In this document: positions 3,001-6,000 of the stretch, in pieces
Layout: every line of letters begins with the position of its first letter
How positions within the stretch are numbered: the stretch's first letter is position 1
Virus genome (UHGV): UHGV-0148496
Reading direction: 5' to 3' (one strand)
DNA: 16,302 bases
Source: a virus
Position numbers: made by a program

Positions 3001-6000
3001 GATTTTACGGATTGCCGCAGCCGCTTTTGTTGCCTGAATGGCGTCACCATTAGCATCAAAGCCCACAAGGTAGTCGGCCCAGTCTTCAATCCATTCTGCC
3101 AGTGATTTCTGGGAGTTACGCTCGCCGTTAACAGACAACAGGGCAGAGAACGGTGCTGTCTTTTTCAGTTTGAGAGTGGCGGTGTTATCTGCGTGACCTG
3201 GTTCATCAATAGTACCCAGGTTAAGCACACTGACGGCACGCATATTATCAGCATCGATAAAGCAGCGGGTGCCTTCATCTGCAAGATCTTTAGAATAACG
3301 GGTAAAGTCATCGATGCTGGCAGTGGAAAGCGCACCACGGAAACGGAAGCGATTTAAATTAAATTTTTCCAGATCATGAATGCGGAAATTCTCAGGCAAT
3401 GCCACAGCATCGGCACCAATCTTACTGATAATTTCATTAACACCCTGAGCAGAAATAAGGGCATGGATTTGATTAATTGCGGTTGCGTCTAAGTTCTGAG
3501 ACATAATAAGTCCTCACTATATTAAGATATTCAGTGATGAGATAAATAATCAGTTAATTAAGAACGATATTAATGACCTTCTGCGCGGAGTTTTCCGTCA
3601 GGTTCACCGGCAAGAGTCAGTAATTGTCCCTGGTCTTCCTGCAGAATAGTCAGGCGACCACCGCGATTGACATACATCGGCGTTTCGGTGGTGTCTTCTT
3701 CAGAAATTTTCCCGCGGTTAGTCGGGCGAACATATGAGAGTTTGTGTTTGATTTTCACACGGTTCTCATCAAACGGTTCGATTTCCAGGTTGAGCGAGAC
3801 CTTACCTTTGGTTTTCGTGTTCATCACACCGGAAGCGACTTCACTGAGAACTGCGCCGATTTTGGTTTCAAATACGCCGCCGTCCAGCTCCCCGATAAAT
3901 GCCTGCACATCAGTACTGCGTTCGCTAGCCATTTTGCTACTCCTCATCATATCGACCCTGCAAGGTCGGTTGGTTTCTCCACAAAACAGAGAAGAACACC
4001 TGCGGTGGCAGCCGCCCGGATGGATTGGGTTATGAGCCCGTCGTCCGGTGATGCTCTTCTCTGTTTTGTAAAAAGAGCGGTACCAGCCGTAAGCAAGTGT
4101 ACAAACTGGTACCGCCAAAGCAGTGGCTGCTGTGGTGACCGGTGCTGATCTCCGGCTTGCGGTTATTTCAGACTCTCACGGGCGTTTAATTGCCCCGCCG
4201 AACAGCTCTTTTCCGCAATAGCTGCAATGTCTTTCGCGCATCAGCCTGCGCATTCACCACAACGCTGAGAGCACTTAGCCAGTTACGGCACCACACTTTG
4301 TCGCGGTTCCATAAATGCCCTCATCGTTGCACCCTGGTCTCTTCCCAGGCGTCAAACCGAATCGCCACGCTGGTTAGGCGTCTTATCAGCGTCATCATTG
4401 ACTTGCACATTCCGGCTACCTGGTTTGTTTGCTCGAGCAAGGAGTGGATTGTCCCCTTTAACGTCACCAGACCGCTAACGACGCATGTGTCATACGCCGT
4501 GTTACAACCAAATTTTGTTAGTACCTTGTTTGTATGTCTGGAAAGAAAGATAAAATGAAGTTGCGCATTATGCAAGTGTTTTTATTGCGAGATATGCAAT
4601 TTGGTGGGTAATGAAAAGCCACCTTCTGGTGGCTAATTGATGTTGAGGTAGGGGTTAATTGTGTCGCTTAAGGGTTTGTGACTGACTGATTAAGACCTTT
4701 CCAAAGACCATAAACCGATGTTCGTTTTCGCTGGTAATTCCCCATTCGCGGTAAATCTGATTATCAGAAATTACCAGCAGTTTATCAGGTATCATTTGCA
4801 GTCGTTTGACGTAAATTTTATCATCAAAACCAAATACATATATACCATCCCCATCAAACTGATTGATACTGATATCAACGAAGATGAGATCTCCTGGCTC
4901 AATGGTTGGACACATACTGTCCCCACGAACGTTGATAACTTTAATGTGATTTGCTGGTCGTCCACCAAACATCGATACAGCATTATCAGTTCTGTATTCA
5001 ATGGCATGAATCACATCAATGACATCACCGCCCTGGATAAGGCCATTTCCCGCACTGGCACTGACATCCAGCATTTCAATACGGAATACATCCTTCACCT
5101 GCGCAACATCCTCACTAATACTGTTTTTACATACAGTATTACTTTTGAGGTCTGAGGTAAAGAGATCAGCAATATCAACACCTAAGCTCCTGGCAATATT
5201 ACTCAGGGCTTGTTCAGTGAATTGTTTCTGCTTACCTGTTTCGAGGCGCGAGATATTCGCCGCATCCACTCCTATTGCTTCAGCGAGATCGGCGATTTTC
5301 ATGTTCTTCGCCTGGCGAAGTTGTCTGACTCGATTTCCTATGTTCATGCGTTTATTACATTTCTTTATTGCGCGTTAAGCAAATCAACTTGCGCAAAATA
5401 TTTGCGTGAAATAATATGCTCATCACGCAATATGTGGAGGTTATATGCAATCACCATTACGGAATGTGCGTAAGGCGCACGGATTTACTTTGCAGCATGT
5501 TGCTGCGGGCGTTCAGGTCAATCCAGCGACGCTGAGTCGTATTGAAAGACAGGAACAAATTCCATCTATCGATCTTGCAGAACGTCTGGCCAATTTTTTT
5601 AAGGGTGAAATCAGCGAAATGCAGATTCTTTATCCGGCACGTTTTCAATCTAGCCAAAACCAGAATGGGTTTAAACCACAGGAACAGGAGGTAAGCCGTG
5701 GGTAAGCATCACTGGAAAGTGGAAAAACAACCTGAGTGGTACGTGAAAGCTGTCAGAAAAACTATCGCGGCGTTGCCGGGAGGTTACGCTGAAGCTGCTG
5801 AGTGGCTGGATGTAACAGAGAACGCTTTATTCAACCGCCTTCGTGCAGATGGCGATCAGATTTTCCCGCTGGGATGGGCAATGATTTTACAGCGCGCGGC
5901 TGGCACTCACTACATTGCGGATGCTGTCGCACAGTCTGCTGGTGGGGTGTTTGTATCGCTTCCTGAAATTGAGGAAGTAGAGAACGCCGATATAAACCAG

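Follow-up and report, generated by a model that had tools for sequence, protein, structure and literature searches.

The 614-base leader (positions 3933-4546, minus strand) that precedes the first early-left gene of the virus genome UHGV-0148496 (a stretch of 16,302 nucleotides (nt), analysed as a whole and called the window here) is a string of three mobile, conserved and structured non-coding RNA modules, A, B and C. The window belongs to the lambdoid prophages of the mEp460/SfV/CPS-53 type (98.6% identity to mEp460 over 3700-4700), and the leader lies between the promoter to the left of the repressor gene cI and a gene resembling yfdP. One module is already published, as sRNA-17, whereas the modular anatomy, the family of RNAs shaped like transfer RNA (tRNA) to which module B belongs, the breadth of this family and module C are new with respect to Rfam and the literature searched. 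We consider it probable that the leader acts as a carrier of non-coding RNAs, with transcripts that are mostly terminated and processed and with read-through that expresses yfdP. A first-pass annotation of the sequence had proposed put-like antitermination, an attenuator or a structured regulatory RNA for this stretch; the last of these options was right, the data speak neither for nor against an attenuator, and every sequence feature that it described was recovered in place or within a few bases. What the data directly support is the anatomy of the leader, how its modules are conserved and covary, their settings in other phages, the identity of one part with sRNA-17 and the lack of N.

A search of phage collections showed that the leader is a mosaic, each piece of which recurs in unrelated phages at 78-96% identity. 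The modules assort independently (among 120 loci with module B, 9 carry module A and 13 carry module C). Rfam gave no match in the leader, either at gathering score or at E up to 10, and none of the three modules matches a family.

Module B (4129-4263, minus strand) is supported by a covariance model (R1) and by covariation. Its closing helix P1 (4263/4261-4255 with 4137-4131/4129; 7 base pairs (bp)) is followed by AAU, the GCGC stem P2 (4251-4248 with 4239-4236; loop AGGCUGAU), a variable insert (4235-4157) and the GCCGG stem P4 (4156-4152 with 4142-4138; loop AGAUCAGCA); the inserts of different members range from 12 to 166 nt and are unrelated to each other. The minimum-energy fold of the region reproduces these helices, and R1 identifies the module in the window at 4130-4262 only (85.7 bits, E 4e-21). 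Across 65 non-redundant relatives 98.3% of the cells are paired and 7 pairs are changed on both sides (66 cells), values that none of 500 shuffles reached (P2 and the 5' loop being held constant by the search pattern), and pairing falls to 23-49% when the partners are slid. Two further copies found with the model carry compensatory variants of P2 (GCAC/GUGC and GCGU/ACGC). The 23-mer GGTGAATGCGCAGGCTGATGCGC of the module occurs exactly in more than 120 viral contigs and in 102 species-representative genomes, at loci with 39-69% GC, from Enterobacterales, Burkholderiales, Pseudomonadales, Oceanospirillales, Xanthomonadales, Neisseriales and some Alphaproteobacteria. A weak second R1 match on the plus strand of the window (13837-14065, TTGTGGTGAATGGGCGGCTGG...GGCCACCAAA; 13.3 bits, E 0.095) has a 200-nt AT-rich insert, runs across the start of a gene of the AraC type and was judged to be probably due to chance.

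The likeness of module B to tRNA lies in its plan: a 7-bp helix, 2 nt, a 4-bp stem with an 8-nt loop and a 5-bp stem contiguous with the 3' strand of the closing helix, with loops that are complementary over six bases (GCUGAU with AUCAGC; at most 3 bases in the type-2 and STnc100 variants) and with cargo in place of the anticodon arm. Module B can also be aligned, base by base, to the acceptor and D-arm of the tRNA-Arg of phiV10-type phages, in which this real tRNA occupies the module B slot after the shared spacer CUAAGUGCUCUCAGCGUU. Unlike a tRNA, it has no canonical T-loop or D-loop sequence, no CCA and no anticodon arm, and its 'T-loop' has 9 nt. ARAGORN made no tRNA call at module B by default and only spurious calls with introns or with a relaxed threshold (80%), and RF00005 gave no match there at E 10. 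In the engineered tRNA scaffolds of Ponchon and Dardel (from 2007), a recombinant RNA reportedly replaces the anticodon arm. At one other locus (L078 3945-4055) the insert itself resembles a tRNA D-arm and T-arm (GTAGCTCAGTTGGTAGAGC ... GCGGGTTCAAGTCCCGC), nested in the tRNA-like frame. A full-text search with the core sequences of module B gave no paper, and the modules are not described in the literature searched on tRNA-like phage RNAs, STnc100 and initiator-tRNA mimics.

When the nearest same-strand neighbours were tallied at the module B loci (192 upstream, 201 downstream), those upstream included 23 cI-like S24 repressors and Q antiterminators of PF03589 (13) and PF06530 (4), and those downstream 18 YfdP-like genes, 8 N-type genes of PF25694 and holins (6 + 6). 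The sites are either PL leaders, with or without an N gene, or late leaders between Q and holin. At one locus (L073) a boxB-like hairpin, module B, a ribosome-binding site and an Arg-rich N-type gene all lie within 200 nt; in HK620, module B stands between qut and the late terminator tQ, and in late leaders like that of HK620 it takes the PR' leader position. Because it is found together with N-type genes and in Q-controlled late leaders, we regard module B as cargo of the leader and not as a substitute for N. In four phages with N-type genes (L021, L044, L056 and L073) its closing helix is longer, at about 17 bp (GCUUUGGGGUGUGGUG...CACCACACCACCAAAGC), and stops some 20 nt short of the start codon of N, which is where an RNase III hairpin is found in the N leader of lambda. 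Pairs of scaffold RNAs 300-400 nt apart were seen on several phage contigs, as two type-1 copies (L039) or as a type-1 copy with an STnc100-like type 2 (among L082, L093, L012, L079 and L004). The P1-type phages have the order tRNA, tRNA, type 1, type 2, plp, tRNA, module A, ban, and an annotated 'hypothetical protein' overlaps the scaffold RNAs there. A tight linkage of module B to tRNA genes was rejected as a general rule (no tRNA within 60 nt upstream, few within 400 nt).

Twelve nucleotides after module B begins an intrinsic terminator (4070-4116, minus strand), a 10-bp GC-rich stem (4115-4106 with 4086-4077; about 16 bp in the fold) followed by UCUUUUU (4076-4070). Its stem sequence varies among relatives, with the pairing and the U-tract kept. 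A simple terminator scan made no call at 4115-4070 because of the long loop; the hairpin and its U-tract, which the first-pass annotation had already singled out, are confirmed as a terminator by an RNA of E. coli K1 RS218 whose 3' end, mapped by rapid amplification of cDNA ends (RACE), falls inside the tract at 4071. This RNA is sRNA-17, a 193-nt product established by RACE and Northern blotting in an mEp460-like prophage (PMC7719688). Its ends in the supplementary alignment of that paper, AAAAGAGCGGTACC...CACCACAAC, correspond to 4071-4263 of the window, exactly 193 nt, and module B plus terminator (minus strand) thus matches the published ends to the base. Since the Northern probe and the 5' RACE primers are the complement of the leader strand, sRNA-17 comes from that strand and reads 5'-GUUGUGGUGAAUGCGC...GGUACCGCUCUUUU-3'. 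The published and the present RNA share locus, strand, length and an mEp460-like prophage setting upstream of yfdP, but PMC7719688 treats sRNA-17 as a free-standing, ArcA-controlled, base-pairing small RNA, without its position in a PL leader, its tRNA-like fold, its family or the transcribed nature of the 'promoter' fragment. The ArcA-bound 'sRNA-17 promoter' fragment of the paper is module A (4513-4265), and its quantitative reverse-transcription PCR amplicon for 'sRNA-17' spans 4513 to 4118 of the window, which places modules A and B on one transcript. Deletion of sRNA-17 raised yfdP about 96-fold, and yfdR was also up (PMC7719688). The terminator is still present in the deletion mutant, which also carries an inserted resistance cassette, and the rise may be due to transcription from the cassette that passes the terminator. 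This explanation presumes a particular orientation of the cassette, which we take to be the one used.

Module C (3976-4074, minus strand) is a three-way-junction hairpin according to its fold and covariation. The basal stem has 25 bp (4074-4050 with 4000-3976), with a 5' strand that starts in the U-tract of the terminator; one of the two arms ends in GACGGGCUCAUAACCCAAUCCA and the other is variable. A 15-bp inverted repeat noted at first pass (3981-3995 and 4055-4069) is real and forms part of the 25-bp helix. Folding and covariation, which had been suggested as a check, both came out positive: the 201-nt 3' part of the leader reaches -88.4 kcal/mol versus -57.5 for shuffles (z = -6.6), and 39 pairs in 18 diverse relatives are 94.2% paired, 10 of them with compensatory changes (on four of five measures, 0 of 500 shuffles reach the observed value). 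The many G-U pairs would not form on the opposite strand and show the leader strand to be the one that folds. The core motif is present in more than 120 viral contigs. The tip, GGGCUCAUAACCC (4039-4027, with CAU at 4034-4032), is a near copy of the anticodon arm of initiator tRNA and agrees with the metY anticodon stem-loop of E. coli at 17 of 19 positions, including three G-C pairs and the loop CUCAUAA (window CGACGGGCUCAUAACCCAA, metY CGUCGGGCUCAUAACCCGA); the three consecutive G-C pairs closing CUCAUAA are kept in 17-18 of the 18 relatives. Klebsiella phages have a second form of module C between Q and the lysis genes, where it follows tRNA-Asn and tRNA-Arg. In CPS-53 of K-12 nothing is annotated upstream of yfdP, and pawZ is unrelated. 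Between module C and the ribosome-binding site, a small hairpin described at first pass was confirmed by the fold at 3968-3953 (minus strand); relatives have a hairpin of differing sequence at this position (read by eye and uncounted, among the sequences listed). The Shine-Dalgarno sequence GAGGAG (3945-3940) and the ATG (3932-3930) of the yfdP-like gene follow.

Module A (4264-4513, minus strand) is a non-coding RNA of about 250 nt with the spacer CUAAGUGCUCUCAGC at its 3' end. Homologous DNA (78-82%) stands just before the tRNA-Arg of phiV10-type phages and, in phages of the P1 type, upstream of ban, where it immediately follows the CCA end of a tRNA. The 24-mer AACCAGGTAGCCGGAATGTGCAAG of the module was found in more than 120 IMG/VR viral contigs. 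No reading frame is conserved in it. The consensus fold (RNAalifold) has 45 pairs, 7 with compensatory changes (e.g., CCUGG/CCAGG, CCUCG/CGAGG and GCCGG/CCGGC); the full fold is moderately supported, because the long-range helices never vary.

The leader is preceded by a PL-like promoter with two operator palindromes (4547-4599, minus strand). The first-pass annotation had placed a promoter here, and it was found in place, with a -35 hexamer TTGCAT (4575-4570), a 17-nt spacer and a -10 hexamer TATCTT (4552-4547), overlapped by the operator-like palindromes TTGCGCATTATGCAA (4561-4575) and TTGCGAGATATGCAA (4585-4599). Their form is TTGCG-N5-WGCAA, and a third copy lies in the interval between cI and cro (5368-5382), which makes a repressor-controlled PL plausible. 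A simple sigma-70 scan made no call at this promoter, since the -35 hexamer matches the consensus at only 3 of 6 positions. Directly upstream, in the same orientation, lies the intrinsic terminator of the cI-like repressor gene (4617-4634, minus strand; a 7-bp stem with 5 GC pairs, then TTTTC).

For the start of transcription, the processing enzymes, the read-through route to the early-left genes and the roles of the RNAs, we infer the following course. Transcription would start from PL near 4540 under control of the repressor and run through modules A and B; in lysogens, read-through of the upstream cI terminator may feed the same path. Most transcripts would end at the terminator (4116-4070, at 4071), and the primary transcript of about 470 nt would be cut at the foot of P1 of module B, releasing the stable 193-nt sRNA-17 and presumably also a separate module A RNA. 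Module B might then be a natural 'tRNA scaffold', a compact, nuclease-resistant and processable frame that displays a variable insert; engineered tRNA scaffolds confer stability and processing. Polymerases that read through would go on across module C into yfdP, yfdQ and the rest of the early-left genes, and the duplex of module C, which swallows the U-tract, would probably be an element for processing or stability of the yfdP mRNA and a candidate RNase III site.

Several points weigh against this course. The terminator looks efficient, so that simple read-through may be too weak for the early-left genes, and an additional antitermination factor for them is possible. A promoter of its own, regulated by ArcA and located inside module A (PMC7719688), could also drive sRNA-17. 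The published 5' end, G4263, precedes the 7-bp helix of the family by 2 nt; this agrees with the 9-bp local helix but not with a textbook RNase P cut. The mapped RNA ends come from RS218, not from this window or an induced lysogen, and the covariation of module A comes from few lineages, with invariant long-range helices.

A mainly cis-regulatory leader, in which the structures shield 600 nt of untranslated RNA from Rho, module C serves yfdP as a site of RNase III cleavage or of translational control, and the small RNAs are by-products, seems unlikely as the whole explanation, although it is compatible with the leader as a carrier of RNAs. Dense structure would shield an untranslated leader of this length from Rho, the 25-bp duplex of module C starts in the U-tract and stands 30 nt upstream of the Shine-Dalgarno sequence, and the long extended helix that carries module B in N-type phages immediately precedes the ribosome-binding site of N. 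But modules B and C also occur without a close downstream gene, e.g., after tRNAs in late leaders, and a mere duplex needs neither invariant loops nor a copy of the initiator tRNA.

The extreme conservation of the core of module B and the initiator-tRNA copy in module C suggest conserved tRNA-handling factors as partners. Modules B and C might be tRNA mimics that engage host enzymes acting on tRNA, early in infection or constitutively from late leaders, an idea that we hold with considerable doubt. They could possibly be decoys for anticodon nucleases or for tRNA-directed defence toxins (the anticodon arm of initiator tRNA is a substrate of enteric VapC toxins), or they could possibly hijack RNase P or other tRNA-handling machinery. 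If true, such mimics would be a widespread class of RNA-based counter-defence or host takeover, and mimicry would account for the invariant 23-nt core across phages of alpha-, beta- and gammaproteobacteria.

Still less likely is a leader that consists of a decayed array of tRNAs or of debris from recombination in mosaic phages, with the terminator as the only functional part. All three modules do occur beside tRNA genes elsewhere, the 5' half of module B resembles an acceptor strand and D-arm, and the modules reassort independently. Against decay, compensatory changes keep the helices of modules B and C, the RNA accumulates in vivo (sRNA-17 in RS218), and an exact 23-mer in 102 species at loci of such different GC content points to purifying selection.

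The first-pass annotation had offered, as one option, protein-independent antitermination of the HK022 put kind, in which the leader RNA would act in cis on the RNA polymerase that is transcribing it by binding to it, render that polymerase resistant to terminators and replace N; this we regard as very improbable. The absence of an N gene and a structured leader between the promoter and the terminator, with genes beyond, would fit, and HK022 put is likewise a structured early-leader RNA in a lambdoid phage without a functional N-type antiterminator. However, put consists of two stem-loops of about 70 nt with a copy behind each of PL and PR (putL and putR were located in HK022 as a conserved inverted pair behind both early promoters), whereas the leader has a single, much larger element, no part of which recurs downstream of PR or elsewhere in the window, and transcripts end at the next terminator. 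Comparison of putL and putR with the leader (blastn) gave at best E 0.16, a 13-15-nt match, and module B coexists with N-type genes and Q in other phages. Since sRNA-17 of RS218 ends at the terminator in vivo, polymerases that have passed modules A and B still terminate there. A boxA-like CGCTCTTTTTA on the minus strand, reported at first pass, is present at 4079-4069, but it does not stand as a boxA: it consists of terminator arm and U-tract and is not conserved, relatives reading CCGTCCTTTTT, CCGACCTTTTT or CCGCCCTTTTT at this site with pairing and U-tract kept. The boxB of a lambda-type boxA-boxB pair does not follow this string; the stem of module C does. In the literature on the regulatory (Eru) regions of Stx phages, the leader and N are not discussed.

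As to coding potential, the longest open reading frames (ORFs) in the sense of the leader have 49 (TTG start), 48 (GTG) and 36 (GTG) amino acids (aa), and the two that start with ATG have 25 and 13 aa. The first-pass claims of no credible ORF and of no N-like antiterminator gene therefore hold, non-ATG starts included, as Pfam with the N_peptide model PF25694 matched neither the leader peptides nor the early-left ORFs further left in the window (the same model detects the N-type proteins beside module B in other phages), and every frame, on both strands, is interrupted somewhere among the homologous lineages. RefSeq has nothing annotated in the leader among the E. coli genomes listed, of about 800 carrying at least 80% of the stretch, and GenBank phage records place contradictory hypothetical ORFs over it on both strands. 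One of these, a 122-aa TTG ORF antisense to the leader (4190-4558, plus strand) that spans modules A and B and is gp37 of mEp460 (NC_019716), is probably spurious, because its frame is broken in other lineages; gp36 and the minus-strand ORFs annotated in phiSTEC1575-Stx2k are likewise probably spurious. A small protein, N-like with a non-ATG start or a micropeptide, is hardly credible: the 25-aa ORF (4253-4176) begins with an Arg-rich MRRLMRER and such hypothetical ORFs are on record, but that ORF lacks a Shine-Dalgarno sequence and starts within the invariant RNA core of module B, the closest to such a sequence among the other leader ORFs is a weak GGTG before the 13-aa one, and the indels among lineages are not multiples of three.

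A leader made of RNA modules explains why the stretch is blank in RefSeq (in the E. coli genomes listed, of about 800) and filled by spurious ORFs in GenBank phage records. Modules B and C are both short and represent strongly conserved, taxonomically broad classes of RNA. The virulence-linked sRNA-17 can be re-read as a product that termination and processing generate from the early leader of a prophage, and the reported 'promoter' as a transcribed RNA module itself. The leaders behind the major lambdoid promoters PL and PR' serve as exchange slots for structured RNAs and tRNAs.

The remaining genes of the region follow the lambdoid order. To the left, on the minus strand, are the yfdP-like first early-left gene (3570-3932), which matches YfdP of CPS-53, and a yfdQ-like gene (DUF2303; 2680-3504). 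The cI-like repressor (4655-5347, minus strand) has helix-turn-helix and S24 peptidase domains, and on the plus strand follow a cro-like gene (5445-5705), a CII-like gene (5698-6249), a Rha/Ash-type gene (6246-7397) and the Q antiterminator (PF06530; 12270-12656). The 383-aa ORF 6246-7397 contains isrK (6606-6682, plus strand; 61.6 bits) and a C4 antisense RNA (6707-6794, plus strand; 82.4 bits), both under the stretch of its Pfam Ash domain (aa 117-213). Either this long ORF is perhaps an over-call, or the two RNA genes may lie within a coding sequence. Downstream of Q and the AraC-type gene, three tRNAs (CAU, UCG and UCU anticodons; 14702-14951, plus strand) are followed by STnc100 and by an ORF with DUF1737 and SASA sialate-esterase domains (15459-16301, plus strand), which we take to resemble the NanS-p-type genes of Stx phages.

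Among known RNAs, STnc100 (RF02076), present in the window at 15028-15236 (plus strand, 134.7 bits), and PasD share a frame with module B: closing helix, AAU, hairpin, insert, CCGG-type hairpin, closing helix and terminator. The second hairpin and the loops differ; R1 does not find the STnc100 of the window, and the STnc100 model has no match in 3500-5000 at E 10. A preprint on the PasD/Pas small RNAs (bioRxiv 10.64898/2026.05.13.724894) bears on STnc100 only. The leaders of SfV and ST64B have an STnc100-like RNA in the module B slot, with the same P1-AAU frame, a different P2 and P4 = CCGGGAGGCACCCGG. It is followed in SfV by the identical terminator and then module C, and in ST64B by a different hairpin before the same U-tract and then module C; the SfV element has a full-length match to the Rfam STnc100 model that scores 39.5 bits, short of the cut-off (47). 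In SfV the position of module A is held by orf33 (L126 1289-1585), a 98-aa ORF that is not Arg-rich, after which the sequence appears to encode a small opposite-strand ORF. Given the same frame, module B, the SfV type, the cdtI type and STnc100 look like alternative bodies on one scaffold; the relation between module B and STnc100 is one of architecture and shared slot, not of family membership.

Lambda 6S RNA and StxS are short terminated PR' transcripts, and module B plus terminator resembles them as a short, abundant RNA terminated just downstream of a major phage promoter. The lambda N leader, with its RNase III hairpin, offers a further likeness in the long duplex before the first gene. 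The sequences of these three systems are unrelated to the present leader, which differs from them in being built of exchangeable structured modules.

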